From: Sphingobium sp. | Lineage (GTDB): Bacteria; Pseudomonadota; Alphaproteobacteria; Sphingomonadales; Sphingomonadaceae | NCBI GenBank assembly: GCA_017984895.1 | Contig: JAGNYO010000005.1 | Span: forward strand, 1,010-65,009 | Direction: 5' to 3' | DNA length: 64,000 nucleotides | Shown: in pieces, positions 8,698-46,570 of the stretch | How the letters are laid out: each line of letters starts with the position of its first letter | Position numbering within the stretch: position 1 is the stretch's first letter | Translations under genes and position numbers: made by a program | Notes under the pieces: model-generated | What the model saw: only the letters and a program-made list of their open reading frames with translations | What the model was told of the DNA's origin: nothing | The model's database searches: none

Positions 8698-9705
8698 GTG
8701 GTTTTGCCGCTTCGCAATCTCGGCTCCTTATCGTCCACCGCGATCGCGTTCGGCTGCATGAACCTTAGCCATGCCTATAATGTCGCGCCTCCCGAAGAGG
8801 AGGCCGTTGCCCTGCTCAATCATGCACTTGATGCAGGCATGACGATGTTCGATACGGCGGCGCTCTATGGCGGCGGCGGTAACGAGCGCCTGCTGGCCAA
8901 GGCGGTTATGCACCGGCGCAAGGAGTTCGTGCTGGCGAGCAAGTGCGTGCTGGATATGATTGACGGGAAGCGCGTGCTCGATGGCCGGCCGGAAACGATA
9001 ACCGCTTCGCTGGAACGGTCGCTGCAACGCCTCGGCACGGACTATATCGATCTCTATTATCTGCACCGGCTGGACAGGAACGTGCCCATCGAGGAGTCCA
9101 TGGGGGCGTTGGTACGGGCAAAGGAGGCCGGCAAAATCGGGCATATCGGTGTCTCTGAAATGTCTGCGGCAACCATCAGGTGCGCCCATGCCGTTCATCC
9201 ACTGACTGCCGTACAGAGCGAATACAGCATCTGTGTGCGCAACCCGGAAGTGGCGGTGCTCGAGGCCTGCCGCGAGCTGGGGATTGGTTTTGTCGCCTTC
9301 TCTCCGCTGATGCGCGGCCTGCTGGCCGATGCTGTCCATAACGATGCTTATGCGCCGGGCGACATCCGCCACATGATGCCGCGTTTCACTGAGCCTAATC
9401 TCAGCACGAACCTGACAATAATCAGCGCTTATAACCGATTGGCGCGGGATCTTGATATTACGCCTTCCCAACTGGCGCTGGCCTGGGTGCTATCGCGTGG
9501 GGATCATATCGTCGCGCTGCCCGGCACACAGTCGCAACGGCATCTGGATGAAAATCTTGGCGCGGCTTCGATCATGCTGGATTCTGCCACATTGGCGAAC
9601 ATAGAGGGCCTGTTCGCGCCGGGCGCTCTTCTAGGCGATCGCTATCCGCCGCAAATGCAGGCGCAGATCGATACCGAGTTGCTGCCGGAGGAAGTAGCCC
9701 CTTAG
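8698..9705 (+). CDS. Aldo/keto reductase
   Basis: 335 aa. ..FDTAALYGGGGNERLLAKA..IDLYYLHRLD..GVSEMSA.. are typical AKR motifs. GTG start 5 nt after the ligC stop, so it is probably the last gene of the lig operon. Confidence 0.85.
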   Translation: MVLPLRNLGSLSSTAIAFGCMNLSHAYNVAPPEEEAVALLNHALDAGMTMFDTAALYGGGGNERLLAKAVMHRRKEFVLASKCVLDMIDGKRVLDGRPETITASLERSLQRLGTDYIDLYYLHRLDRNVPIEESMGALVRAKEAGKIGHIGVSEMSAATIRCAHAVHPLTAVQSEYSICVRNPEVAVLEACRELGIGFVAFSPLMRGLLADAVHNDAYAPGDIRHMMPRFTEPNLSTNLTIISAYNRLARDLDITPSQLALAWVLSRGDHIVALPGTQSQRHLDENLGAASIMLDSATLANIEGLFAPGALLGDRYPPQMQAQIDTELLPEEVAP

Positions 9706-9743
9706 CGCTCGTCAGTGAAGAGCGTAACCTGCCCGAGGAATGA

Positions 9744-10907
9744 TCAGGTCCGTGTCATCAATAGTTTGCCCTCCAGCACAGTGAAGGCAAGGCGGCCCTC
9801 TACCAGATCGAGCGCGTCACGGCCGAACTGTTCGAACCGCCATCCTTCGAGAATGCATAGCCCCTCGCGCACGCCTGCCGCCAGCATCTCGACATCATCG
9901 GTGCGGGCGATGAGCCGCGCAGCAACATCGATCTCCTTGGCGCGAATCTTTAGCAGCAGCTTCAACAGGTCTGCCACCAGCGCGCCATCCTTGCCAAGAC
10001 CGGGGCGTTTCGGGTCGCGCTCTGGCATTTCCTCGCTCGGCAGGGGCACGGCGGAGGCCAGGGCCTGCATCAATCGCGAACCTATATCATTTACTTTCCA
10101 GGAAGCGGAAAGGCCACGCACCTTGCCCAGATCCTCCTGAACACGCGGCGAATGAGAGGCGAGGTCCGCCAGCGTCTCGTCCTTCACAATGCGGCCGCGC
10201 GGAATATCCTTGGTGCGCGCTTCCGTCTCGCGCCAGGCGGCAAGCGCTTTCAATCGGCCAAGCACGTCTGGCTTGCGGCTGGAAATGCGCACGCGCTTCC
10301 ATGCATCCTCCGGCCTGTTTTCATAATTGGCAGGGTCGCCGATCCGCTCCATCTCGTCATCGAGCCAGTCGCCACGCCCGGTTTTGCGCAGCTTTTCGAG
10401 CATCATCGGAAAAATCTGGACCAGATAGGTCACGTCTCCGATTGCATAGTCGATCTGCCGCTTGTCAAGGGGCCTGCGCGCCCAGTCGGTGAAGCGGGCG
10501 CCCTTGTCGAGTGTGATGCCCATCCAGGCATCGACGAGGTTGCCATAGCCGATCTGCTCGCCCAGCCCGAGCGCCATCGCTGCAATTTGCGTATCGAACA
10601 GCGGGTGCGGGGTCTTGCCGGTAAGATTGTAGATGATCTCCAGATCCTGCCCGCCCGCGTGAAAGACCTTCAGCACGTCCTCGTTATTGACCATCAGATC
10701 AAGCAGGGGGGTGAGGTCCAGCCCCGGCGCCTGGGGATCAATCGCGGCTGCCTCATGCTGATCAGCGATCTGGACGAGGCACAGTTCGGGCCAAAATGTG
10801 TTCTCGCGCATGAACTCGGTATCGATCGCGACCCAAGAGGAGCGGGAGAGGCGTTCGCACAGGGCGGCGAGGTCTTTGCTGTCGGTAATCAGCGGATGAA
10901 TTTGCAT
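9744..10907 (-). CDS. rnd: Ribonuclease D
   Basis: DEDD exonuclease motifs ..VAIDTEFMRE.., ..KVFHAGGQDLE.., ..QIDYAIGDVTYL.. plus an HRDC-like C-terminus. Start set to ATG 10907 (MQIHPL..); the ORF-track start at 10922 is GTG. Confidence 0.9.
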   Translation of the reverse strand: MQIHPLITDSKDLAALCERLSRSSWVAIDTEFMRENTFWPELCLVQIADQHEAAAIDPQAPGLDLTPLLDLMVNNEDVLKVFHAGGQDLEIIYNLTGKTPHPLFDTQIAAMALGLGEQIGYGNLVDAWMGITLDKGARFTDWARRPLDKRQIDYAIGDVTYLVQIFPMMLEKLRKTGRGDWLDDEMERIGDPANYENRPEDAWKRVRISSRKPDVLGRLKALAAWRETEARTKDIPRGRIVKDETLADLASHSPRVQEDLGKVRGLSASWKVNDIGSRLMQALASAVPLPSEEMPERDPKRPGLGKDGALVADLLKLLLKIRAKEIDVAARLIARTDDVEMLAAGVREGLCILEGWRFEQFGRDALDLVEGRLAFTVLEGKLLMTRT

Positions 10908-11020
10908 ATGGCCTTCGATCACATTATGGGCTGGCGCGCGGGTGCGCTGAGGTTCTTATACAAGAGTTGCAGCGCACATAGCCCGGTTACATCCATTTGT
11001 CATATTCAGAAACGAGCATC

Positions 11021-12802
11021 ATGCACGCATATCGCACCCATACCTGCGCCGAGCCGCGCCTTACTCACGCCGGGGAGACGATCCGGGTGTCCGGCTGGGT
11101 CCACCGCAAGCGCGATCATGGCGATCTGGTGTTCATCGATCTGCGCGATCATTATGGCATGGTGCAGATCGTTACCGAGGTCGATGGCCCGGTGTTCAAG
11201 GTGATCGAGAGCCTGAAGCCCGAAAGCGTGGTGACGATTACCGGCAGGGTGGTTGCCCGCGCCAAGGAGGCGATCAACCCCAATCTCCCCACGGGCGAGG
11301 TCGAGATCAGGGCGGATGACGCCGTGCTGCTCTCCGCCGCCGCCGAACTGCCGCTGCCGGTGGCGGGCGAGCAGGACTATCCGGAGGATGTCCGCCTGCG
11401 CTATCGCTTCCTGGACCTCAGGCGTGAGACGCTGCACGGCAATATCGTCAAGCGCACGAAGATAATCTCCGATATGCGCCGACGGATGGAAGCCGCAGGC
11501 TTCACCGAATATTCGACACCGATCCTGACGGCCAGCTCGCCCGAAGGCGCGCGCGATTTTCTGGTGCCCAGCCGCATCCATGCCGGCAAGTTTTATGCAC
11601 TCCCGCAGGCGCCGCAGCAATATAAGCAGCTTCTGATGGTCGCTGGTTTTGATCGCTATTTCCAGATCGCCCCCTGCTTCCGCGATGAGGACCCGCGCGC
11701 GGATCGTCTGCCCGGCGAGTTTTACCAGCTCGATCTCGAGATGAGCTTCGTCACGCAAGAAGATGTGTGGACCACGATGGAGCCGGTGATCGCGGAGGTG
11801 TTTGAAGCCTTCGCGGATGGCAAGCCAGTGACCCCTGCGGGCAGCTTTCCGCGCATCCCCCATGCCGAGGCCATGCTGAAATATGGCTCTGACAAGCCGG
11901 ACCTGCGCAATCCGGTGCTGATCACGGACGTGACGGATCATTTCGCCGGTTCCGGTTTCGGCATCTTTGCGGGAATTGTCGAAGGAGGCGGGGTGATCCG
12001 CGCGATCCCGGCGCCGGGCGCAGGGGCGGGCAGCCGCAAGTTCTTCGACGACATGAATGTCTGGGCGCGCGGCGAGGGCTATTCGGGCCTTGGCTACATC
12101 AACATCAAGGAAGGCGAGCCGGGCGGCCCGATCGCCAAAAATCATGGGCCTGAAGCCACCGCAAAGCTGATCGCGGCGCTGGGCCTTGGCCCCAATGACG
12201 GCGTGTTCTTCGCGGCGGGCAAGGAGGCTCAGGCGGCGAAGCTCGCCGGCCTCGCGCGCATCCGCGTGGGTGAGCAGCTCGACCTCATCAACAAGGATCG
12301 GTTTGAACTGTGCTGGATCGTCGATTTCCCGTTCTATGAGTATGACGAGGACGAGAAGAAGCTCGATTTCGCGCACAACCCGTTCTCTATGCCACAGGGC
12401 GGGATGGAGGCGCTGGAGGGTGCCGATCCGCTGTCGATCAAGGCCTATCAGTATGACATGGTCTGTAATGGCTTCGAGATCGCCTCCGGTTCGATCCGCA
12501 ACCAGCACCCCGATCTGATGGTCAAGGCGTTTGAACTGGTCGGCCTCTCCAAGGCGGATGTGGAGGAGCGGTTCGGCGGCCTCTATCGCGCGTTCCAATA
12601 TGGCGCGCCGCCCCATGGCGGCATGGCGGCAGGCGTGGATCGCATCGTCATGCTGCTCTGCGGCGCGCAGAACCTGCGCGAGGTGACACTTTTTCCGATG
12701 AACCAGCGCGCTGAGGATCTGCTGATGAGCGCACCGTCTACGGCTGCGCTCAAGCAGTTGCGCGAGCTGCATATCCGGGTGGTGGAACCGCAGAAGGGAT
12801 AA
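11021..12802 (+). CDS. aspS: Aspartate--tRNA ligase
   Basis: Class II aaRS. ..[25 protein letters not shown].. OB-fold anticodon domain. ..[10 protein letters not shown].. and ..[14 protein letters not shown].. motifs. Start set to ATG 11021 (MHAYRTH..) rather than TTG 10997. Confidence 0.95.
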
Positions 12803-23797: not shown

Positions 23798-23820
23798 TCT
23801 GGATTATTCTCACAAATATT

Positions 23821-23838
23821 GCGATGGAATGATGACAG
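23821..23838 (-). promoter_or_regulatory. Weak Pho-box-like site upstream of phoR (one consensus half-site)
   Basis: Minus-strand CTGTCAT-CATT-CCATCGC. Only the first 7-mer is consensus. It lies in the 57-nt divergent gap between phoR and the Tat-signal ORF. Confidence 0.3.
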
Positions 23839-23854
23839 TTTTTGAGATTGGCGA

Positions 23855-24310
23855 GTGGAAACACACATGGAGGACCGAAACCTGGAGAACGCGGATGCAC
23901 GCCAAGCCGTTGATCGGGATGCGGGCGGAAGCGCGGCGGAGCATGGCGTTGGCAGGCGCCGGCTGTTACTGGGCGGCGGGCTGGCAGCGGCCTCCGCAGT
24001 AATTTCCATCCGCCCCGCGCTGGCGCAGACGGCGGCGTCTGTCCTGCATTGCCAGATCCCGGTGCCCGATCCATCACGATCAGGCCAGGCAATCGCGGTG
24101 GATGGCTCGCTGGTCCCGGCGGGCACCAAGGGGGCGTTTCCCGCCAGTGGCCGGCCGTTCACGGGGGAAGAAGTGAAGGCGGCATTGCGTGGCCGGACCT
24201 TGCCCGGCACCAGCTATGAGCAGAGCAGTGCCTACCTCAACTATATCCGCCGCCTGCAAAGCGGGACGAGCGGTTTCACCTGCTACGCTTCGTTGCAGAT
24301 GCCGCGCTGA
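23855..24310 (+). CDS. Hypothetical secreted protein with twin-arginine (Tat) signal
   Basis: 151 aa from GTG 23855 (ATG alternative at 23867). ..GRRRLLLGGGLAAASAVISIRPALA/QT.. is a Tat-type signal. The mature part is about 94 aa with two Cys. I recognise no family. Its stop is 5 nt before the PqqD-like ORF. Confidence 0.55.
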   Translation: METHMEDRNLENADARQAVDRDAGGSAAEHGVGRRRLLLGGGLAAASAVISIRPALAQTAASVLHCQIPVPDPSRSGQAIAVDGSLVPAGTKGAFPASGRPFTGEEVKAALRGRTLPGTSYEQSSAYLNYIRRLQSGTSGFTCYASLQMPR

Positions 24311-24315
24311 GCCTG

Positions 24316-24621
24316 ATGGCGGCGGGGCAAGCGCGGGCCTATTGCCGGTGTGAAAGCGGGCACATGGTCTGGCGGGCACTGGACGGGCTGACGCTGGTCT
24401 TTCATCGTCCCTCCGGCCTTACGCATATGCTCGCCTCGCCCCTGCCTGAGATCATGGCGGCGCTGGACGACGCGACCTTGACGGCGCCTGCCCTGCTGGA
24501 GCGCCTCTCAGCGCGCTTTGACCTCGGCGATGAGGGGGATAGGCTGGCTGCACTGGAGGCGCATCTGGAGGAGTTGGCGGCGCTGGGTTTGATCAGGAGT
24601 ATGCCGTGCGCCACGCCCTGA
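24316..24621 (+). CDS. PqqD-family (RRE-like) peptide-chaperone protein, HPr-rel-A-system type
   Basis: 101 aa (85 aa if from ATG 24364, MVWRALDGL..). ..LVFHRPSGLTHMLASPLPEIMAAL..LTAPALLERLSARFDL..LEAHLEELAALGLI.. fits the PqqD winged-helix pattern. Confidence 0.7.
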   Translation: MAAGQARAYCRCESGHMVWRALDGLTLVFHRPSGLTHMLASPLPEIMAALDDATLTAPALLERLSARFDLGDEGDRLAALEAHLEELAALGLIRSMPCATP

Positions 24622-25472
24622 CACTCGCCATTGGCCCAGCGCGCTTGCGCATCGGTTCGGCATGGGAACAGCCAGTTGCGCAACTCCGCGCGCTCTATGC
24701 CGCCTATCCGCAGGATGATGCAGCGGTGGCGGATTTTACCGTGCGGCTGGAGCCTGCCGGGCCATTGCGGCGCTGGTGGCGGCCCTCGGTGCGGATCGCG
24801 GGCGACCATATGCTGCCGGACGCCGCGCCGATGGCCTTGCGGCACGGCCTGCTCGCCGCCGAAATGGGCATGAACCTGCAAATGGCGCTGGGCTGGCGGC
24901 GACACCTGTTGATTCATGCGAGCAGCGTTGAGAAGGATGGCCGCGCGATTGTCATGACCGGCGACTCCGGCTCCGGCAAATCTACGCTCGCGGCGCTGCT
25001 GGGAGAGCGCGGCTGGCGCTTCATGGGCGATGAGTTTGCATTGCTCGATCTGGCGGACGGGCGCGTGCATCCGTTCCCCCGTCTGGTGTCGCTGAAGAAC
25101 GCGGCGATTGCGGCTATGCGCACCGAGGTGAACGACGCCGCCCGCTTTGGCCCGATGATGCGCGATACGCCGAAGGGGGATATCATCCACCTCATCCCGC
25201 CGCTGGAGGCGATTGCGCGGATGTGCGAACCCGCCCGGCCGGCGCTGCTACTCTTTCCACGCTATGGATACGCGCAGGATCTGCGGCCGGTGGGGCAGGG
25301 CGAGGCGTTCATGCGGCTCACTCAGGCCTCCACCAACTATGTCGCACTGGGCGAGGCGGGGTTTGACGCGCTGCACCGCTTCGTGAGCGATGTTCCGGCG
25401 ATGGCAGTCGATTATGAGAGCAGTGCGCAGGCGCTGGAGCTTGTCGACGCGCTGTGGAGCGAGATTGCATGA
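24606..25472 (+). CDS. HprK-related P-loop kinase (HprK-related kinase A type)
   Basis: 288 aa, GTG start overlapping the upstream stop by 16 nt. ..AIVMTGDSGSGKSTLAALLGERGWRFMGDE.. parallels the HPr kinase P-loop region (..GDSGxGKSE..L..G..LV.DD..). Confidence 0.75.
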   Translation: MRHALTLAIGPARLRIGSAWEQPVAQLRALYAAYPQDDAAVADFTVRLEPAGPLRRWWRPSVRIAGDHMLPDAAPMALRHGLLAAEMGMNLQMALGWRRHLLIHASSVEKDGRAIVMTGDSGSGKSTLAALLGERGWRFMGDEFALLDLADGRVHPFPRLVSLKNAAIAAMRTEVNDAARFGPMMRDTPKGDIIHLIPPLEAIARMCEPARPALLLFPRYGYAQDLRPVGQGEAFMRLTQASTNYVALGEAGFDALHRFVSDVPAMAVDYESSAQALELVDALWSEIA

Positions 25473-26464
25473 GCGCGGCAGCGCTGGTTAGCCTGATGCG
25501 CGCGCCGGATCGCGCCCCAGCATTGCGTGCGGATCAGTGGAACGGTTTAATCTCTGCCGCGCGGGCGGAACGGTTGCTCGGCACGCTGGCGGTGCTTTTG
25601 GAGGATATCGCGGTGCCCGACACTGTGCGCGCGATCCTGTCAGAAGCGCGCCTCGATGCAGAGCGGGAGCAACGCATCGCCCTGTGGGAGGCGAACCGCG
25701 CGGCTGAGGCCCTCGCGCCACTGGGGCTGGCGTCGATCCTGCTCAAAGGCGCGGCCTATGCGGCGGCTAGTCTCCGTGCGTCGGATGGGCGGATGGTGGG
25801 CGATCTCGATATTCTCGTGCCACGCGACCGGCTGGAGGAGGCGGAGGCCGCGCTGCGCGACGCCGGGTGGGAATGGGTGAAGCCCGATCCTTATGACGAC
25901 GCCTATTACCGGCAATGGATGCACGAGCTGCCGCCGCTGATCCACCGCGAGCGGGACCGGATGATCGATGTGCACCACACGATCCTGCCACTCACCGCGC
26001 GGCCCCGCCCAGATGCGTCAGCCCTGATCGCGCAGAGTGTGGATGTCGGAGGCGGGCTGAGGGTGCTGTCGCCAGAGGACAGGGTGGTTCATGCCGTCGC
26101 GCATATGCTCGCCGATGGAGATTTGTCGGGTGGTTTGAGAAATCTGTGGGATATTAGATGCTTGATTGCAGAAGTTGAAGATAAAGATAAATTAGACCGG
26201 CGGGCCGCACACCACGGCCTTACAAAACACCTCGCCCGCGTGTGGCGGCTGGTTGATCATGTTTACGGGCAAGGCAAGACTGGGCTGCACCTAACCGATC
26301 GCTTATTCCTGCGCCGCCTGCTTACCCGCGATGGCTGGGGGCGAGACAGCCGCAAAGGACTTGGCCTCGCCTTCTATATCCGCTCCCACCTGCTGCGGAT
26401 GCCGCCGCTGATGCTGATCCGCCACCTGTTCACCAAATGGCGCAAGGGGCATCGGCCGGTTTGA
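25469..26464 (+). CDS. Nucleotidyltransferase family protein (NTP_transf_5-like)
   Basis: 331 aa from ATG 25469 (ATGA overlap with the kinase stop). ..ILLKGAAYAA..GRMVGDLDILVPRD.. has the G-x-D-x-D polymerase-beta-type nucleotidyltransferase motif. Helical C-terminal half. Confidence 0.7.
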   Translation: MSAAALVSLMRAPDRAPALRADQWNGLISAARAERLLGTLAVLLEDIAVPDTVRAILSEARLDAEREQRIALWEANRAAEALAPLGLASILLKGAAYAAASLRASDGRMVGDLDILVPRDRLEEAEAALRDAGWEWVKPDPYDDAYYRQWMHELPPLIHRERDRMIDVHHTILPLTARPRPDASALIAQSVDVGGGLRVLSPEDRVVHAVAHMLADGDLSGGLRNLWDIRCLIAEVEDKDKLDRRAAHHGLTKHLARVWRLVDHVYGQGKTGLHLTDRLFLRRLLTRDGWGRDSRKGLGLAFYIRSHLLRMPPLMLIRHLFTKWRKGHRPV

Positions 26465-26495
26465 TCCGAAACGCGCCGCCTTGCGGCGTTTCGGA
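26465..26495 (+). terminator. Hairpin immediately after the nucleotidyltransferase stop
   Basis: TCCGAAACGC ... GCGTTTCGGA, a perfect 10-bp stem starting 1 nt after the TGA. No T-run follows. Confidence 0.4.
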
Positions 26496-26499
26496 TGTG

Positions 26500-26579
26500 C
26501 GGCACCAGCCCGCTCCCCCTCCCAACCTCCCATAGGATACCCTGTCGGGGTGGCTGGGAGGGGGAGCGGGCTGGTGCCG
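26500..26579. repeat. 80-nt palindromic element with perfect 25-bp arms
   Basis: Left arm C-GGCACCAGCCCGCTCCCCCTCCCA (26500..26524), 30-nt spacer, right arm TGGGAGGGGGAGCGGGCTGGTGCC-G (26555..26579). It fills most of the gap between the convergent nucleotidyltransferase and gph genes. Confidence 0.85.
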
Positions 26580-26582
26580 AAA

Positions 26583-27248
26583 CTAAGCTCCCCATCCCTC
26601 AAGCAGCGCCACGAGATCTTCGAACCGATGCAAAATCGCGTCCGCGCCCAGCTCTGCACTGGCATCTGTAAAGCCAAAGCTCACGGCGATGCTCGCCAGC
26701 CCCGCATTTTTCGCGCCGTCGATGTCGTTCGACGTATCGCCCAGAAACACACAGCGTCCGCCGCCCGCGCGCCGCACCATTTCGTGCAACGGCTCCGGGT
26801 GCGGCTTGGCCTTGCCGACGGTATCGCCTCCGATGATCGCATCGAAATGCGGCTCCAGCTCCAGATCCCGCAACAACGGCAATGTAAACCGCTCGAACTT
26901 GTTGGTGCAGATGGCGAGCCTTACTCCCCGCCCGCGCAACTCCGCCATCGCCTCCGCTGCGCCGGGGTAAAGCAGGGTGTGGTCGGTCAGATGCTCCTGA
27001 TACCACGCCATCAGCACCGGGGTGAGGCTATCCAGCAACTCCGGCGTATAATCGCCCGAGGCTTTGAGTGCCCGCTCCAGCATCACCCGCGTGCCCTTGC
27101 CCACAAACTGCTTGATCTCGTCCACCTCATGCGGCGGCAGGCCCACCGTGCCGAGCGTGTGGTTGACTGCGGCGGCAAGATCAAGGCTGCTGTCGACCAG
27201 CGTGCCATCGAGGTCAAAGCCAACAATGTCGAAAGGAATTTGTGCCAT
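26583..27248 (-). CDS. gph: HAD-superfamily phosphoglycolate phosphatase
   Basis: Start at internal M15 (MAQIPFDIVGFDLDGTLVDS..). HAD motifs DLDGTL, ..ICTNK.., ..GDTSNDIDGAKNAG.. Confidence 0.8.
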   Translation of the reverse strand: MAQIPFDIVGFDLDGTLVDSSLDLAAAVNHTLGTVGLPPHEVDEIKQFVGKGTRVMLERALKASGDYTPELLDSLTPVLMAWYQEHLTDHTLLYPGAAEAMAELRGRGVRLAICTNKFERFTLPLLRDLELEPHFDAIIGGDTVGKAKPHPEPLHEMVRRAGGGRCVFLGDTSNDIDGAKNAGLASIAVSFGFTDASAELGADAILHRFEDLVALLEGWGA

Positions 27249-27336
27249 CAGCGCGCCCTTGCCTTCTGCACTGTGGCATTGGCAAGTCAAACATGGCAGA
27301 GGAACGGTACATGTGTGTTGTTTTGCATGAGGTCAG

Positions 27337-31895: not shown

Positions 31896-32933
31896 TCAAG
31901 TAGGGCGGCGGACAAGCTGGGAAATGCGGGTTCTAAGAGCGGGGAGCCACTGGCCTGCCCTGCGCGGATCAAAGCAATCGAGCCGCAGCATCGGGCGTTC
32001 GCGCTCCATCCAATCCCGCTTGTAAGCGTTGCCGCCGGTGCCATAATCGATGCGGGAGACTTTCTCGACATCGATCATGTGGGCGAACATGTGATGACTG
32101 AGTAGGGTGCCTGGGGAGTGGGAATCTTCGGTGTTATCATGCGCGATCTTGTGGATGCAGGCGGTGTCGCCCTCGATCGTCCAGAGCTGGGCGGCGACAC
32201 CGTGCCCGTCATGGCGCGCGATACCGAGGCGCAGGTATCCGCGCGCGCCCGCCTCCTCCGCTACGGCACGGACCATAGCGGGATACGGCTCGGCGTTTTT
32301 CCAGCTCGCGGCATAGACGGCGCAATATTCCTGCCACAGTGGATCGTTCAGATTCCTATGAATGTCGTAGGCATAGCGGCCTGAACGTTGTTTCCGTCGG
32401 ACAGAGGCGCGTAATGCGCCTGGTCGCGTTCGCCAATAGGCCTCGAAATCTTGGCTTTCCAGATCAACAATATAATTGCCGCCCTGATCGGTCAGCAGTG
32501 CGATCCACCCCGCGCAGGCGAAGGCGCGGCGCAGCAATTCGGGCATAGCATCGCCTTCATTGTCGATCAGCGGATAGAGGCTGATTCGCCCCGCACTCCC
32601 GCGCAGGCCCGCCGCGATCTGAAGCACCAGCGCGTCGCGCACGGCCGCGTCCTCCACGCCCTCGAACACCGGCGCGTAGGAGAAGCTGTAATAGTTGGCG
32701 AGCGCGCTCAAACGGCCATCCTCGGCATCCCGCACCAGCGGTAGCACGGCGGATGCATCGCCGATCCGCGCCTGCGGGGTCAGCACTTCGCGTCCTGCAA
32801 AGCAATGCCGTGCCAGCATATCGAACCACGCACGCCGGTGAAAACCCCACGCGGCGCCAGTCGCGGCCCTACCATCCAGCTCCGCGGCGCTATCGTCTTT
32901 CCGTGGCGGGGAAATGTCTCTATCCCGGTTCAT
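31896..32933 (-). CDS. GNAT / FemAB-like (Acetyltransf_6, CelD-like) acyltransferase
   Basis: 345 aa from ATG 32933 (MNRDRD..; the track start at 32963 is TTG). ..YYSFSYAPV.., ..FEAYW..RPGALRASVRRK.., ..YLRLGI..G..VAAQLW..IHK.AHD..SPGTLL.. resemble the BioF2-like/CelD acetyltransferase family as I recall it. Confidence 0.65.
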   Translation of the reverse strand: MNRDRDISPPRKDDSAAELDGRAATGAAWGFHRRAWFDMLARHCFAGREVLTPQARIGDASAVLPLVRDAEDGRLSALANYYSFSYAPVFEGVEDAAVRDALVLQIAAGLRGSAGRISLYPLIDNEGDAMPELLRRAFACAGWIALLTDQGGNYIVDLESQDFEAYWRTRPGALRASVRRKQRSGRYAYDIHRNLNDPLWQEYCAVYAASWKNAEPYPAMVRAVAEEAGARGYLRLGIARHDGHGVAAQLWTIEGDTACIHKIAHDNTEDSHSPGTLLSHHMFAHMIDVEKVSRIDYGTGGNAYKRDWMERERPMLRLDCFDPRRAGQWLPALRTRISQLVRRPT

Positions 32934-32957
32934 GATGCGCCTGAATAGCGTATAGTC

Positions 32958-34511
32958 GTGCAAATGGGGTTAAGTGATTTGCCAGTGAAGCCAATAGACC
33001 ATTTGCCGATAGCGGGCGCGGCTGTGGCCGGAGGCGAAGCGCAGGCAATAGCGGGCAAGGCCGGGGCGCTGAGCTATGCCGCGCTCGAAGAGGCAGTGGG
33101 CCGCATGGCGGGCTGGCTGGCTTCGCATGGCTTCGCGCCGGGCGCGCGGATGGCGAGCTGGGTAAGCAAAGGTCGACTCGCCTGCATCATGCCATTGGCT
33201 GCGCCGCGCGCCGGGCTGATCCATGTGCCGATCAACCCGCTGTTGAAGCACGCGCAGGTGGCGCATATCCTTGCCGATAGCGGCGCGAGCTTGATAATCG
33301 GGACGGCGGCGCGGCTCGGCTCCCTGGAGCCAGGCGACGTGCCGGAGGCATGCCTCACAAGGGTCGAGGATGCGGCGCTGGCTGAGGCGCAGCACTGCAC
33401 CGCCATGCCGCCATCGGATGCTGAGCAGCATGCGCTCGCTGCCATCCTTTACACTTCCGGCTCCACCGGCAGACCCAAGGGCGTGATGCTGAGCCATGCG
33501 AATCTGTGGCTGGGCGCGGTATCTGTGGCGGAGTATCTGTGCTTCAGCCCGCAGGACCGTGTGCTCGGGGTGCTGCCGTTCAGCTTTGATTATGGCCAGA
33601 ACCAGATGCTCTCTACATGGGCAGCGGGGGGCACGGTGGTGCCGCTCGATTACCTCACCGCGCGCGATGTGGTGAAGGCGGTAGAACGGGAGGGCATCAC
33701 CACGCTCGCCGGTGTGCCGCCGCTCTGGGTGCAGCTTGTGGAGGCAGAGTGGCCACCCGAGACGGCGGCGCGGATGCGGCGCATCACCAATAGCGGCGGT
33801 GCGCTGACCAAGGCGCTGATCGGACGGTTGGCTGCGCTGTTCCCCAATGCAGACATCTATCCCATGTATGGCCTGACGGAGGCGTTTCGCTCCACTTATC
33901 TGCCGCCGGAGCTGGTCGCCACCCACCCCGAAAGCATGGGCCGCGCGATCCCCCATGCGGAGATTCTCGTCTGTCGCCCTGACGGCAGCCTGACAGCGGA
34001 TGACGAGCCGGGCGAGCTGGTGCATTGCGGGCCGCTGGTGGCGCAAGGCTATTGGAACGACCCGGTGCGCACCGCTGAGCGGTTTCGCCCCGCGCCGCCC
34101 TGCTCCAGCTATGACGGGCTGGCGGTGTGGTCTGGCGATACTGTGCGGCGGGATGAGGAAGGCTTGCTCACTTTCGTGGGGCGGGAGGACGCGATGATAA
34201 AATCCGCTGGCAACCGCATCAGCCCCACGGAGGTTGAGGAAGCGGCGCAATCGGTGGCGGGCGTGGCGGAGGCGGTGGCGCTCGGCGTGCCGGATGCGCG
34301 TCTGGGGCAGGCAGTGCTGCTGCTGGTGCGAGTGTTGAGCGACGATGCGGTGGACGCGCTGCGTGAAAGTTTGAAGAAGGAGCTGCCCAATTTCATGATG
34401 CCGTCTGAAATCCGCGTGGTGGAGGCCTTCCCGCGCAACGCCAATGGCAAGATAGACCGCGTGGCTTTGGCGCAGGAGTGGCGCGCGCTGGCCGGGGAGG
34501 GCGCGGAATGA
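32958..34511 (+). CDS. AMP-forming acyl-CoA/acyl-carrier ligase, exosortase A system-associated type
   Basis: 517 aa. AMP-binding motif ..ILYTSGSTGRPKGVMLSHANL.. A8/A10-like ..GDTVRRDEEGLLTFVGRED..IK.. and ..NANGKIDR.. Start ambiguous (GTG 32958, ATG 32964 or GTG 32985). Confidence 0.85.
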   Translation: MQMGLSDLPVKPIDHLPIAGAAVAGGEAQAIAGKAGALSYAALEEAVGRMAGWLASHGFAPGARMASWVSKGRLACIMPLAAPRAGLIHVPINPLLKHAQVAHILADSGASLIIGTAARLGSLEPGDVPEACLTRVEDAALAEAQHCTAMPPSDAEQHALAAILYTSGSTGRPKGVMLSHANLWLGAVSVAEYLCFSPQDRVLGVLPFSFDYGQNQMLSTWAAGGTVVPLDYLTARDVVKAVEREGITTLAGVPPLWVQLVEAEWPPETAARMRRITNSGGALTKALIGRLAALFPNADIYPMYGLTEAFRSTYLPPELVATHPESMGRAIPHAEILVCRPDGSLTADDEPGELVHCGPLVAQGYWNDPVRTAERFRPAPPCSSYDGLAVWSGDTVRRDEEGLLTFVGREDAMIKSAGNRISPTEVEEAAQSVAGVAEAVALGVPDARLGQAVLLLVRVLSDDAVDALRESLKKELPNFMMPSEIRVVEAFPRNANGKIDRVALAQEWRALAGEGAE

Positions 34512-41927: not shown

Positions 41928-42797
41928 ATGTCAAATATTATCAATGCTTTATCCATTGATGTTGAAGACTGGTTTCAGGTTGGTGCCTTTGAAACTACTT
42001 TCTCGCGCAGTGACTGGGCGGGCTGCGAATCCCGCGTTGTGGCCAACACGGAACGGCTGCTCGATCTGTTTGCGCGCCACAATGTGAAGGCGACATTTTT
42101 CACATTGGGTTGGGTGGCGGAGCGGCACCCGGACCTTATCCGTCGCATTGTGGCCGCCGGGCATGAGCTTGCGAGCCACGGCTATGACCATAGCCGCGTC
42201 TTTACCTTCACCCCCGAACAGTTCCGTGCGGATCTGCGCAAATCGCGTGCGCTGCTGGAGCAGGCGGGCGCGGTGCCAGTGCGCGGCTATCGCGCGCCGA
42301 GTTTTTCTATTGATGCACGCACGCCTTGGGCGCACATTATTCTCGCCGAAGAGGGCTATAGCTATTCCAGCAGTGTCGCGCCGGTGCGGCATGACCATTA
42401 TGGCTGGCCGGAGGCGCCGCGCTTTGCCTATCGCCCGCTTCCCGGTTCGCCGCTGGTCGAGCTACCCGTGACGACTGCGCGGCTGCTGGGCCGCACGATT
42501 GCGGCGGGCGGCGGCGGGTTTTTCCGGCTGATGCCCTATGATTTCACACGCTGGGCGGTGAAGCAGGTCAACAGTGCCTATCAACGCCCGGCGATCTTTT
42601 ATTTCCACCCGTGGGAGATCGATGCGGATCAGCCGCGCGTCGCCCATGCCCCGCTCAAATCCCGCCTGCGGCACTATACCAACCTCGCCACCACCGAGGC
42701 GAAGCTCGACCAGCTGATCGGCGCATTTCGCTGGGGCAGGGTGGATGATGTGCTCGCCGGTCAGGCGAAAGATGCTTCATACTGGCCCGCGGCATGA
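41928..42797 (+). CDS. Polysaccharide deacetylase (CE4), PEP-CTERM locus subfamily
   Basis: 289 aa from ATG 41928. ..ALSIDVEDWFQV.., ..ATFFTLGWVAERHP.., ..HELASHGYDH.. CE4 motifs. Confidence 0.88.
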   Translation: MSNIINALSIDVEDWFQVGAFETTFSRSDWAGCESRVVANTERLLDLFARHNVKATFFTLGWVAERHPDLIRRIVAAGHELASHGYDHSRVFTFTPEQFRADLRKSRALLEQAGAVPVRGYRAPSFSIDARTPWAHIILAEEGYSYSSSVAPVRHDHYGWPEAPRFAYRPLPGSPLVELPVTTARLLGRTIAAGGGGFFRLMPYDFTRWAVKQVNSAYQRPAIFYFHPWEIDADQPRVAHAPLKSRLRHYTNLATTEAKLDQLIGAFRWGRVDDVLAGQAKDASYWPAA

Positions 42798-43840
42798 TCG
42801 TATCGCGCGCCAATCTCGATGACGCCCGAACCGTGGCGGAACTGGAGGCGTGGATCGGCGCGCGGCCCGACTCTACGCCGTTTCACCGCCCGGCGTGGAT
42901 CAGCGCGGTGGCGCGCGGCACCGGGCAGGAGGCGATGATGCTGGTCTGCCGTCATGGCGGCGGGGACATCGCGGGCGTCCTGCCCTTGAACCTCATTCAT
43001 TCGCCGCTGTTTGGCCGGGCGCTGGTATCGAGCGGCTTTGCAGTCGATGGCGGGATATTGGCGGACGATGCGGCGGTGGCAGAGGCTCTCGCGCAGGAAT
43101 TCTGGCGGCTGGCGCAGGTGTTGAGCTGCCCCACGGCGGAGTTGCGCGGCGGAGCGTTGCCGCGTGAAGGCTGGACGCTCAAGAGCGGCGTCTATCTCAA
43201 CTTCGCCAAGGCGCTGGAGGCGGACGACGACGCGCAGCTGCTCGCTATTCCGCGCAAACATCGGGCCGAGGTGCGCAAGGGGTTGGACAATGGCCTTGAT
43301 ATGGAATTCGGGCGGGATCAGCGCCTGCTCGACATTCACTATCGCCTCTATGCCGAGAATGTGCACCGGCTCGGCACACCTGTTTTTCCTAAAGCAATGT
43401 TTGCCGAGGTGCTGGCCACCTTTGGTGCAGATGCTGACATTGCGCTGGTGAGCAAGGACGGCGCGCCGCTCACTACCATTTTCAGCCTCTATCACAACGG
43501 CGTCTGCATGCCCTATTGGCAGGGCGCAACGCTGGCGGCGCGCAAGATGCGTTCCAACGAGGCGGGCTATTTCCAGCTCATGAGTCATGCACGTGAGCGC
43601 GGTTGCACTCATTTCGATTTTGGGCGATCCAAGGTCGGCACCGGCCCTGCGGCGTGGAAAAAAACCTGGGGCTGGGAAGGCGAGCCGCTGACCTATGCCA
43701 CGCGCGCGGCGGAGGGCTACGACGCGCGGGATATCAACCCGCTCTCGCCGCAATATCAACGCAAGGTGGCGCTGTGGAAGAAGCTGCCGCTTCCCATAGC
43801 GAGCTTCATTGGGCCATATATCGCGCGCGGCCTGGGCTGA
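42794..43840 (+). CDS. FemAB-related acyl/aminoacyl-transferase, PEP-CTERM system-associated type
   Basis: 348 aa. ATGA overlap with the deacetylase stop. ..FHRPAW..G..LPL..SPLFGRALVS.GF..GGIL.. and ..FDFGRSK.GTG...FK..WG.. resemble the FemAB-related family as I recall it. Confidence 0.8.
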   Translation: MIVSRANLDDARTVAELEAWIGARPDSTPFHRPAWISAVARGTGQEAMMLVCRHGGGDIAGVLPLNLIHSPLFGRALVSSGFAVDGGILADDAAVAEALAQEFWRLAQVLSCPTAELRGGALPREGWTLKSGVYLNFAKALEADDDAQLLAIPRKHRAEVRKGLDNGLDMEFGRDQRLLDIHYRLYAENVHRLGTPVFPKAMFAEVLATFGADADIALVSKDGAPLTTIFSLYHNGVCMPYWQGATLAARKMRSNEAGYFQLMSHARERGCTHFDFGRSKVGTGPAAWKKTWGWEGEPLTYATRAAEGYDARDINPLSPQYQRKVALWKKLPLPIASFIGPYIARGLG

Positions 43841-43849
43841 GACGGCGTC

Positions 43850-45061
43850 ATGGCGGAGCTTGGTGAGATCCTGTTTCTGGTGCATCGCATCCCATTCCCG
43901 CCGGACCGGGGCGACAAGATCCGCTCGCATCACATATTCCATGCGCTGCGCGACATCGGCCCTGTGCATGTTGGCTGCTTTGCAGACGATGCTCGAGACA
44001 TGAGCTTTGCCGACGAGATGGCGATGCTCACCGCCAGCCAATGCGTGGTGCGGCGGGATCGGTCGCGCGCGGTGGCGGGAGTGAACGGGCTGCTGCGCCG
44101 CCAGCCAATGCTGGTCGCAATGTATGAAAGTGCAAGGATGCATCAATGGGTGCGGGAGGTGCTGGGAACCCGTCCAATCCGTGCCATTGTTGCCTACTCG
44201 GTACAGATGGCGCACTTCGTGCCGCATGACCTGCCCGAGGGGGTGCGCTTCATCATGGATTTCGTCGATTTCGACAGCGCGAAATATGCGGCCTATGGCG
44301 CAGTGCAGGGCGGCGTGATGGGCTGGGTCAACCGGCGCGAGGGGCGGGTGCTGATGCGCTTCGAGCGGGAGACGGCGCTGCGGGCGGATGTCTCTGCCTT
44401 CGTCAGCGCGGCGGAAGCGGCCATGTTCGTGCGCACTGCCGTGGTTGAGGGTGCGGATGTCCGGGCACTGGATAATGGCGTTGATTTGAAGTATTTCAAT
44501 GCACTACCGGATATTTCTCTCATTGATAATCAGCAGAAGCCACTGCTCGTTTTCACCGGCCAGATGGATTATCGCCCTAATATCGAAGCGGTGAAGAGCT
44601 TCGCGTGCGCGGTATTTCCGTCCATCCGTGCCACGCATCCCAACGCGCGCTTCGCTATTGTGGGCCGCAACCCCACGCCACAGGTGAGCGCGCTGGCCGA
44701 GCTGCCCGGCGTGGTCGTGACTGGCGGCGTGCCCGATGTGCGCGGCTGGCTGGCGGCGGCGGATGTGGTGGTCGCGCCGTTGAGGATCGCACGGGGCATC
44801 CAGAACAAAGTGTTGGAAGCGATGGCGATGGGCCGGCCGGTCGTTGCCTCGCCGCAAGCTGCCGAAGGTATCGATGCGCAAGACGGCGCGCATTTCGTAA
44901 TCGCCAACACACCGGCTGAGGAGGCGCAGGCGATAGTCGCGCTGCTGGCTGAGCCGGAGCGCGCTACGGCGCTTGGCAAAGCGGCGCGCGCGCGGATGGA
45001 AGCCCGCTATGAATGGGCAGCAACGCTCACGCCGTTGGCCGATATGGTGACGGGCGGATGA
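43850..45061 (+). CDS. GT4-type glycosyltransferase, PEP-CTERM/EpsH1 system-associated sugar transferase type
   Basis: 403 aa. N-terminal ..ILFLVHRIPFPPDRGDKIRSHH.. C-terminal ..GRNP..L..LPGV..TG.V.DVR.....ADV.V.PL..ARG.QNKVLEAMAMG.PVV.. GT-B motif. Confidence 0.85.
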   Translation: MAELGEILFLVHRIPFPPDRGDKIRSHHIFHALRDIGPVHVGCFADDARDMSFADEMAMLTASQCVVRRDRSRAVAGVNGLLRRQPMLVAMYESARMHQWVREVLGTRPIRAIVAYSVQMAHFVPHDLPEGVRFIMDFVDFDSAKYAAYGAVQGGVMGWVNRREGRVLMRFERETALRADVSAFVSAAEAAMFVRTAVVEGADVRALDNGVDLKYFNALPDISLIDNQQKPLLVFTGQMDYRPNIEAVKSFACAVFPSIRATHPNARFAIVGRNPTPQVSALAELPGVVVTGGVPDVRGWLAAADVVVAPLRIARGIQNKVLEAMAMGRPVVASPQAAEGIDAQDGAHFVIANTPAEEAQAIVALLAEPERATALGKAARARMEARYEWAATLTPLADMVTGG

Positions 45062-46557: not shown

Positions 46558-46570
46558 GGGCGAGAGCATC

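Follow-up and report, generated by a model that had tools for sequence, protein, structure and literature searches.

A conserved module of a Tat-leader protein, a PqqD-family protein, an HprK-related kinase and a nucleotidyltransferase in Sphingobium, a candidate system for modification of a small exported protein

In lasso-peptide clusters of the paeninodin (PadeK) type, a recognition element (RRE) of peptides that are made by the ribosome and modified after translation (RiPPs), an HprK-like kinase and a nucleotidyltransferase (NTase) tailor the peptide, and a kinase-containing lasso cluster is known from Sphingobium yanoikuyae (PMC8498205). In pseudomycoidin, PsmK, with an essential DD pair, (poly)phosphorylates Ser, and PsmN, with D134/D136 (D-x-D) essential, then attaches one or two hexoses at the phospho-Ser (PMC6993621). 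The linear polyphosphorylated peptides (LPPs) of Bacillota were described in May 2026 by Popov et al.; their precursors of 35–200 aa have a conserved N-terminal region and variable C termini, their kinase polyphosphorylates Ser3 of the core, and the leader is cut by a signal-peptidase homologue with the help of the RRE (PMC13381572). LPP clusters sit in capsule loci, LPPs are stated to be restricted to Bacillota, and LppN had no activity in that study (PMC13381572). The HPr-rel-A system, a computational definition, names two proteins only, the HprK-related kinase A (TIGR04352) and its PqqD-family partner (TIGR04353). Here, a cassette of this last kind is described from a stretch of 64,000 nucleotides of a Sphingobium sp. 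(GCA_017984895.1, contig JAGNYO010000005.1, positions 1,010 to 65,009), hereafter the window, in which the genes for a small protein with a twin-arginine translocation (Tat)-type leader (gene 1), a PqqD-family protein (gene 2), an HprK-related kinase (gene 3) and an NTP_transf_5 enzyme (gene 4) follow each other (Table 1). It is proposed, with the chances judged about even, that the four genes form a single operon and work together as an RRE-dependent system, which would modify the small Tat-exported protein and have a role in the envelope or in exopolysaccharide (EPS) biology. The first-pass annotation, which had been made from the sequence alone, had stated that no function was known for such cassettes; in agreement with this, a search of a literature library found no paper that mentions TIGR04352, TIGR04353 or HPr-rel-A, none on exosortase together with HPr kinase and none on RiPPs that combines a twin-arginine leader, an RRE and a kinase, and it found PF14907, the family of gene 4, only in passing in a phosphonate survey.

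The four open reading frames (ORFs) are co-directional and, as first described, are spaced by a 5-nt gap (24311–24315), a 16-nt overlap (24606–24621) and an ATGA overlap (25469–25472), all read off the sequence. Gene 2 matches TIGR04353 ('HPr-rel-A system PqqD family peptide chaperone') with 69.5 bits (cut-off 35), as likewise do the gene-2 orthologues of distant loci, and gene 3 matches TIGR04352 with 245.6 bits (cut-off 200) over residues 6–283 of its 288 aa; with both models above their cut-offs and the two genes overlapping, the window locus is a member of the HPr-rel-A system, while the Tat-leader protein falls under no model of that definition. The models for true HprK reach only 20.4 bits (TIGR00679, cut-off 240) and 19.2 bits (PF07475, cut-off 33.3), with residues 101–144 alone matching, and ScmC of the SynChlorMet cassette (TIGR04249) reaches 30.3 bits (cut-off 125). 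No radical-SAM gene, as would accompany ScmC in a SynChlorMet cassette, is found near the cassette. Gene 4 matches PF14907 (NTP_transf_5) with 177.3 bits (cut-off 31.2). The PqqD, HprK-related kinase and nucleotidyltransferase assignments of the first-pass annotation, as well as its identification of an HPr-rel-A system, are thus borne out by the profile searches, with the NTP_transf_5 partner alongside.

The kinase carries the catalytic elements of its family. Residues 91–145 align to the HprK/P of L. casei with the catalytic His (H104), the GDSGxGKS string and the acidic pair D142-E143 in register, which upholds the likeness of the P-loop to HPr kinase that had been noticed in the sequence, and the His, P-loop and acidic-pair residues are invariant in 38 diverse homologues, down to 31% identity. 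The AlphaFold2 (AF2) model of the kinase (pLDDT 93.9, pTM 0.90) has an HprK/PEPCK-like P-loop fold; Foldseek matched this model to ATP-dependent phosphoenolpyruvate carboxykinases (ATP-PEPCK; E ~5e-7, TMq 0.5–0.59) and to HprK/P (E 7e-4 to 6e-3). In comparison with HprK/P itself, the aligned P-loop, preceding His and acidic pair and the fold of the C-terminal domain are common to both, whereas the N-terminal domain differs, there is no HPr context, and the identity on structural alignment is 12–17%. At least 5018 homologues of the kinase were found at E ≤ 1e-5. In the NTase, K93, G94, G107, R108, D112, D114, D167, H169 and H170, which include the catalytic carboxylates, are invariant in 21 orthologues; the PDB holds no sequence relative of this protein. 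The D142-E143 pair of the kinase corresponds to the essential DD pair of PsmK, and the D-x-D of the NTase to D134/D136 of PsmN. Natural fusions tie the three proteins together by sequence, as kinase-NTase fusions of ~700 aa (P0155, P0165, P0186) and PqqD-kinase fusions (P0181, P0266, P0273) both occur.

The arrangement of the genes is conserved well beyond Sphingobium. A genome scan in which each GTDB species was represented by a single genome found full-length relatives of the kinase at 58 loci, and in ~50 Sphingomonadales genomes of at least 10 genera the same order is kept, with the pho operon divergent from ORF1-PqqD-kinase-NTase and HAD-glmU-glmS convergent with it. The four-gene arrangement recurs in more than 120 independent loci, which is far beyond chance. 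Measured against five relatives, the ratio of non-synonymous to synonymous substitution rates (dN/dS) is 0.06–0.27 for ORF1, 0.19–0.48 for the PqqD gene, 0.11–0.25 for the kinase gene and 0.12–0.30 for the NTase gene, and all four genes are intact and under purifying selection. An ORF with a Tat-type leader lies immediately upstream of the PqqD gene, on the same strand, in 59 of the 63 assessable loci of Alpha- and Betaproteobacteria. The alphaproteobacterial loci belong to Sphingomonadales and Kordiimonas (L056), and further loci with this ORF come from Rhodocyclaceae (L055), an unclassified betaproteobacterium (L057), Methyloversatilis (L058), Janthinobacterium-like bacteria (L081, L083, L084), Gallionella (L082) and contigs of sulfur-oxidiser type (L085, L086). 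The linkage also holds in the other direction: a search with the ORF1 alignment brought up 80 metagenome loci, 68 of which had at least 700 bp downstream, and in 65 of these 68 the PqqD or kinase gene directly follows the Tat ORF, while one more ends within an inserted glycosyltransferase gene. The four exceptions among the 63 are Sphingopyxis-type loci (L017, L021, L027, L033; at ~9280–9730), in which PqqD-kinase-NTase-HAD-glmU-glmS is kept and two other ORFs, by eye a regulator of the MarR family (148 aa) and a receptor of the TonB-dependent type, stand upstream in the place of the Tat-leader gene and the pho operon. In L021, from a metagenome-assembled genome of Sphingomonadales, the operon is in addition split by a transposase-like ORF of 390 aa (10876–12048, minus strand, N-terminus MPQISAGIDIAKEVHW), by eye IS110-like, between the kinase and NTase genes.

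Gene 1 is where this locus goes beyond the computational definition. The longest ORF runs from a GTG at 23855 to 24310 (plus strand, 151 aa); however, the ATG at 23867 is the more plausible start. By motif, a twin arginine (S/T-R-R-x-F/L-L-K type), a weakly hydrophobic h-region, a basic c-region residue and an A-x-A-type site can be discerned in the gene-1 ORFs of every lineage, with the leader consensus RR-x-(F/L)...(S/T)-x-R-(P/S)-(A/V)-(L/W)-(A/G), and in the window the signal-peptidase site is predicted from the sequence between ALA and Q, at 24025/24026. The Tat-signal model TIGR01409 passes its cut-off for the equivalent ORF of L057 alone. A regular expression for the leader finds exactly one in-frame ORF per locus, each time the gene upstream of the PqqD gene, and across the window it found no second precursor. 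Additionally, a check for small ORFs that the first-pass annotation had proposed found no second precursor ORF, as 23798–24364 is wholly taken by gene 1 and 26465–26582 holds a hairpin and a long palindromic repeat alone. Within Sphingomonadales, the mean pairwise identity is 0.65 for the leader (RR to ALAQ), 0.14 for the hypervariable n-region, 0.61 for the mature part and 0.76 for the C-terminal 29 aa. Between alpha- and beta-type gene-1 proteins, the leader is the sole segment that hhalign aligns. The mature parts range from ~45 to ~200 aa and form families without detectable alpha/beta homology; a homology between the alpha- and beta-type mature domains was rejected (hhalign probability 1.4%, E 0.037, leader only), and they are treated as unrelated. 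A conserved leader with a variable cargo is the classic pattern of a precursor, the same as in the LPP precursors. The earlier view that no obvious precursor was present is thereby superseded, the Tat-signal ORF itself being the best candidate.

The gene has 3577 homologues, all annotated as 'hypothetical' and none with a Pfam domain. The AF2 model of the mature domain reaches moderate confidence (pLDDT 76–90 over residues 60–130), and Foldseek found no PDB match for it (best E 2.9, TM <0.2). Two residues of this region are invariant in the alpha-type proteins, Ser58, at position +5 after the predicted cleavage site, and Cys62, four residues further on; the S-x-x-x-C pattern is also present in Kordiimonas (L056) and in L052, L054 and L057. 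By analogy with Ser3 of the LPP core, Ser58 is proposed as the phospho-acceptor, and the peptide QTAASVLHCQIPVPDPSR is, on the same analogy, proposed as the stretch of gene 1 that would bear a kinase-dependent modification. Low-complexity inserts are seen in the mature part of the Gallionella protein (L082, 8899–9663; Ser/Asp-rich repeats) and in that of L086 (8996–9727; a (GQ)n run), and the mature part of the Kordiimonas protein (L056, 5492–6262) holds an extremely acidic stretch of ~90 aa rich in D, E, G and H. This suggests that the conserved ends of the Tat-leader proteins frame a freely variable middle.

Two features of the gene neighborhood connect the module with glycan biology. In three Sphingobium species a GT4 glycosyltransferase gene (PF00534, 96–109 bits) lies between ORF1 and the PqqD gene, and a GT4 gene is also found within the operon in 18 of the 68 metagenome loci (e.g. 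L097, L099, L101–L104); strains that carry the insertion include S. scionense DSM 19371 and S. lactosutens DS20, and the operon of the window has none. Judged from the sequences, the insertion points to glycan chemistry on the product. Furthermore, in five betaproteobacterial loci (L057, Gallionella L082 and the Oxalobacteraceae-type L081, L083 and L084) the module lies inside XrtA/PEP-CTERM loci, where its neighbors are genes for an acyl carrier protein (ACP), the exosortase-A-associated hydrolases 1 and 2 (TIGR03100/TIGR03101), the TIGR03013 priming glycosyltransferase, PrsT, a PrsK/R-like two-component pair, the system-specific acyl-CoA ligase and decarboxylase, and PEP-CTERM proteins. The window module is 5 kb from the boundary of the XrtA EPS locus. 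In L058, L085, L086 and most Sphingomonadales the module is remote from EPS genes, and its neighbors in L058, L085 and L086 are housekeeping genes. The remark in the first-pass annotation that such cassettes tend to occur in exosortase-encoding genomes is therefore right for a part of the family. In the Methyloversatilis locus (L058, 11980–13407), rpiA and a phoU gene (255 bits on NF008332, curated cut-off 342) come after the cassette, which thus has a phosphate-signalling gene near by in a second and independent neighborhood, perhaps by coincidence.

Taken as a mechanism, the proposal would run as follows. Gene 1 would be translated with its N-terminal twin-arginine leader, and the PqqD-family protein would bind the end of this leader (...S-I-R-P-A-L-A), as RREs bind an xxPx(L/V) motif, and recruit both enzymes. 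The P-loop kinase would then phosphorylate, possibly repeatedly, a hydroxyl side chain just after the leader, for which Ser58 is the best candidate, and the NTP_transf_5 enzyme would build on this phosphate by adding a hexose or a nucleotide in phosphodiester linkage, a product that the operon-encoded GT4 would lengthen in some Sphingobium species. The modified and probably folded protein would be exported through the general Tat translocase, with the leader removed by the general signal peptidase I, which would explain the absence of genes for a dedicated peptidase or exporter. The envelope would finally be the place where the product acts, with a probable link to the biology of exopolysaccharide or biofilms.

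The proposed order of reactions resembles that of the lasso tailoring enzymes (PadeK; PsmK/PsmN), in which an HprK-family kinase with an acidic pair and then an NTP_transf-type D-x-D enzyme act in sequence. In the lasso systems, however, these enzymes are accessory to a cyclase, a B2 protease and an ABC exporter and act on the C-terminal Ser of a core of ~20 aa, whereas the cassette described here has no cyclase, no protease and no C-terminal Ser (the candidate substrates end in ...QMPR, ...KPKK, ...YLGQ, ...VCDR or ...TTWN), and its candidate substrate is a protein of 90–200 aa that is folded according to the model. No Asn-synthetase-like cyclase was found within ±10 kb of the cassette in the window, nor beside it in the 58 full-length relatives; the sole NF033535-type homologue of the window (46502–48463), 20 kb away, is the XrtA amidotransferase (TIGR03108, 915.8 vs 816.9; NF033535, 249 vs 525). 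Similarly, the flanks contain neither a B2 transglutaminase-like leader protease nor a short precursor with a C-terminal Ser. The missing lasso cyclase had been correctly pointed out from the window alone, as had the lack of a leader protease and of a dedicated exporter within 5 kb, where the ORFs are the pho genes, the HAD phosphatase, glmU, glmS and trxB.

The LPPs are a closer match, as they likewise combine an RRE, an HprK-like kinase and an NTP transferase without a macrolactam cyclase, in EPS or capsule loci rich in glycosyltransferases. The phospho-Ser of LPPs sits a few residues after the cleavage site, and Ser58 of gene 1 would be similarly near to the predicted site. The absence of a core RiPP enzyme, which the first-pass annotation had singled out, holds as far as the cyclase is concerned and does not hold as an anomaly, since these three components can form a stand-alone RiPP class (PMC13381572). 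Several differences remain. The SipW-like SpI peptidase of LPP clusters is absent here, and no peptidase Pfam family occurs in L081–L086; the MsbA-like exporter is absent, the nearby ABC genes being pstB, pstA and pstC alone, with none in L081–L086. The LPP leader motif YxxPxVLxHQxIxFETxxS is replaced by RR...S-I-R-P-A-L-A, with Q-T-A-A-S after the predicted site, so that the common part is P-x-L and a Ser soon after the cleavage site; within it, the c-region RP(A/V)(L/W) is similar to one half, Px(L/V/I/F/A), of the motif that RREs bind (PMC13381572), and the xRPAL of the window leader is, by this analogy, proposed as the motif bound by the PqqD-family protein. A leader that is like a Tat signal would make a dedicated protease and pump unnecessary. 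Moreover, the host is a proteobacterium, the kinase belongs to the separate TIGR04352 family, and in Sphingomonadales the locus has a stable place in the chromosome and is passed on vertically, whereas LPP clusters are patchy and horizontally transferred. The system is therefore filed here as one that works like LPPs and is not a member of them, set apart by the lack of the SpI peptidase, the exporter and the YxxP leader. What is new is the substrate candidate and its leader; the enzyme logic is now known from LPPs.

For the use of a general secretion signal in place of a leader and a dedicated exporter, and for a small folded precursor, the bufferins offer an analogy; these MNIO-modified RiPPs with Sec signal peptides have small folded proteins as precursors and a periplasmic, disulfide-containing product (PMC11626156). 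They differ in the chemistry, which is thiooxazole formation by MNIO and DUF2063, and in the use of Sec and not Tat, and their Sec signal is dispensable for modification; the signal region of gene 1, unlike that of bufferins, is the most conserved candidate recognition element. Twin-arginine signal peptides are also bound by the Tat proofreading chaperones TorD, DmsD and NapD, which hold them until maturation is complete. The fold of the all-helical TorD is different from the winged-helix RRE of PqqD, and these chaperones serve the insertion of cofactors and not a covalent modification of side chains.

A number of observations weigh against the proposal in its present form. The Tat signal of the window ORF is a call at the level of the motif (GRRRLLLGGG...SIRPALA, then Q), as this ORF has no Pfam or NCBIfam match at E ≤ 0.01, Tat-signal models included; its leader lacks the Tyr or Trp of the canonical [Y/W]xxP RRE motif, so binding of the RRE to RPAL is drawn by analogy, as is Ser58 as the acceptor. 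The beta-type proteins have no Ser four residues ahead of the corresponding Cys (position −4), which indicates from the alignments that the acceptor site is not universal, and for the chemistry of the NTase there is one in vivo example to draw on, PsmN. Structurally, the kinase model comes closest to PEPCKs, which are small-molecule enzymes. Finally, the four Sphingopyxis-type loci keep PqqD-kinase-NTase without an adjacent Tat ORF, and in two of the 68 metagenome loci the cassette is missing beside the Tat ORF; with these exceptions the linkage of the Tat ORF to the cassette is not absolute.

Several of these points would fit better if the three proteins acted on another substrate, such as a lipid-linked or nucleotide sugar, an EPS or another protein (e.g. 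PEP-CTERM), with the Tat protein as a periplasmic accessory or effector. The phosphotransferases matched by the kinase model, the Sphingopyxis-type loci, the synteny with glmU-glmS in Sphingomonadales and the embedding in EPS loci beside PEP-CTERM proteins, a priming glycosyltransferase and PrsT all speak for this explanation; however, it is considered unlikely, because a PqqD-family RRE is a peptide-binding module, in some homologues even fused to the kinase, because the characterised HprK-like kinases that are paired with an RRE all phosphorylate peptides, and because the pattern of conserved leader and variable cargo would be left unexplained if gene 1 were a mere accessory. Slightly less probable still is a role in export proofreading or regulation, in which the PqqD protein would hold the Tat signal and a reversible phosphorylation or nucleotidylylation, as with HprK/P and GlnE, would gate its release by the metabolic state (phosphate, UDP-GlcNAc). 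HprK/P is a bifunctional, metabolite-regulated kinase/phosphorylase, which agrees with such a switch, as do the position of the conserved element within the signal peptide itself and the conserved neighborhood with phoR and glmU/glmS, with phoU in Methyloversatilis. The synteny with phoR and glmU is, however, confined to Sphingomonadales and Kordiimonas and may reflect vertical inheritance, other lineages have the module among EPS or housekeeping genes, a stable decoration is suggested by the GT4 insertions, and a Pho-box half-site upstream of the operon is not conserved (5 of 45 loci).

The Ser58 phosphate might instead be eliminated to dehydroalanine, to which Cys62 would add to close an S-x-x-x-C thioether ring, following the logic of class II–V lanthipeptides. 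The invariant spacing of Ser and Cys in the alpha-type proteins, together with its recurrence in the other four loci named above, and a second conserved cluster, T-C-x-x-S, at the C-terminus would agree with a lanthionine-type crosslink, yet the cassette encodes neither a lyase nor a cyclase domain, lyase activity is not known for NTP_transf_5, the beta-type proteins do not have the Ser-Cys spacing, and the two Cys residues are more simply a periplasmic disulfide; this explanation is held to be quite improbable. The cassette could also be what is left of a decayed cluster for a phosphorylated lasso peptide, with the genes for cyclase, protease, precursor and exporter gone. The three proteins do correspond to the tailoring set of paeninodin- and pseudomycoidin-type clusters, and S. 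yanoikuyae has a lasso cluster with a kinase. This possibility, which the first-pass annotation had itself raised, was rejected and is given next to no weight, as all ORFs are intact with dN/dS of 0.06–0.48, the synteny is constant in more than 50 genomes of the order, the kinase has an equivalog family to itself, and no cyclase-like gene was found beside any full-length TIGR04352 member, yet Asn-synthase-like cyclase candidates do adjoin the distant HprK-like kinases L068, L069 and L073–L075.

Modification of the small Tat-exported protein by an RRE-dependent system remains favored. A more specific form of this proposal is put forward tentatively and is given clearly less confidence than the general one. 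In it, the Tat signal would double as the RRE leader of a ribosomally made small protein that is phosphorylated and glycosylated or nucleotidylated in the cytoplasm, the Tat translocase and signal peptidase would replace a dedicated protease and exporter, the systems, with loci numbering in the thousands among Alpha- and Betaproteobacteria, would be a large sister class to the LPPs on the Gram-negative side, and the product would be a so far overlooked protein component of the XrtA/PEP-CTERM EPS system.

The coordinates of the module are collected in Table 1. The longest ORF of gene 4 starts further upstream at a GTG (25454–26464, 336 aa). The operon promoter is presumably in the region between gene 1 and phoR, the divergent neighbor that is kept in ~45 Sphingomonadales loci, and the hairpin after the NTase gene is probably the end of the operon, being terminator-like without a T-run; consensus scans for promoters and terminators gave no signal above shuffled expectation. 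A perfect Pho-box half-site, CTGTCAT, lies in the same phoR/gene-1 intergenic region (23832–23838, minus strand), and because it is present in just 5 of 45 orthologous regions, Pho regulation of the operon was dropped as evidence. A separate long inverted repeat (26500–26579; arms of 32 nt that are 94% complementary, around a spacer of 16 nt) is located where the NTase and HAD phosphatase genes converge and resembles a palindromic element of the repetitive extragenic palindrome (REP) or miniature inverted-repeat transposable element (MITE) type.

Table 1. Position of the four genes, their key residues and the associated elements. Coordinates are those of the window, except for the GT4 insertions, which are given in the coordinates of their own loci.
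Feature	Position	Strand	Remarks
Gene 1, small protein with twin-arginine-type leader; candidate substrate/precursor	23867..24310	+	147 aa from ATG 23867
Gene 1, conserved leader core RRRLLLGGGLAAASAVISIRPALA: twin arginine, weakly hydrophobic h-region, c-region S-I-R-P-A-L-A	23954..24025	+	regular expression and alignment
Gene 1, S58-V-L-H-C62: invariant Ser, +5 from predicted cleavage site, and invariant Cys	24038..24052	+	alignments
Gene 1, C-terminal motif SGTSGFTC139YASLQMPR: second invariant Cys, conserved T138 and S142	24263..24310	+	invariant columns G136, F137, T138, C139, S142
Gene 2, PqqD-family RRE protein (PqqD_rel_X)	24316..24621	+	101 aa
Gene 3, HprK-related kinase A	24606..25472	+	288 aa
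Gene 3, H104	24915-24917	+	alignment
Gene 3, P-loop G119-T127	24960-24986	+	alignment
Gene 3, D142-E143	25029-25034	+	alignment
Gene 4, NTP_transf_5 nucleotidyltransferase-fold enzyme	25469..26464	+	331 aa; ATG overlaps kinase stop
Gene 4, catalytic carboxylates D112 and D114 (GDLDILV)	25802-25810	+	alignment
Gene 4, catalytic carboxylate D167 (IDVHH)	25967-25969	+	alignment
Divergent intergenic region, common to phoR (minus strand, start 23797) and gene 1	23798..23866		69 bp
Perfect hairpin, 11-bp stem, directly 3' of NTase stop codon, between convergent genes	26464..26496		inverted repeat, 100% complementary
GT4 insertion, L004	8475-9653		PF00534 match
GT4 insertion, L006	8492-9652		PF00534 match
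GT4 insertion, L007	8334-9494		PF00534 match

The position of the cassette between the Pho regulon and the glmUS/exosortase EPS region, ~5 kb from the EPS boundary, is as the first-pass annotation had given it. The upstream flank is phoU-pstBACS-phoR, and downstream follow the HAD phosphatase, glmU, glmS and trxB genes and then the XrtA EPS locus at ~31.6–48.5 kb. The HAD-IA phosphatase (26583–27290, minus strand), which is convergent with the operon, scores just under the cut-offs for phosphoglycolate phosphatase (185 vs 225; 172 vs 180) and adjoins the NTase gene across Sphingomonadales and in Kordiimonas (L056); it may be a functional partner, e.g. as a phosphatase, or a case of mere synteny. 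The EPS region also has two FemAB-like genes. One of them (31896–32963, minus strand) adjoins ACP and acyl-CoA ligase genes, has no NCBIfam match at E ≤ 1e-5 and has orthologues in L001 and L002 at 70–73% identity, and the other (42794–43840, plus strand) matches TIGR03019 (320 bits). The exosortase gene (45013–46557) encodes an XrtA fused to a C-terminal EpsI domain, of 514 aa (TIGR03109, 307 bits, and TIGR02914, 80 bits).

If the proposal is true, the TIGR04352/TIGR04353 pair, which is annotated in thousands of proteobacterial genomes, would gain a function, a substrate and a site (Ser58), and LPP-type chemistry would extend past Bacillota. The Tat signal peptide of gene 1 would also be the first example of one that serves as a RiPP leader. 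As RODEO, antiSMASH and similar mining tools count on a short leader peptide and a dedicated exporter, the way in which precursor genes are searched for would be altered. Additionally, a modified secreted protein would be tied to the XrtA/PEP-CTERM exopolysaccharide machinery, which was reportedly described computationally in 2006. Even if the proposal is wrong, the four conserved genes are still the mark of an uncharacterised pathway related to the envelope.

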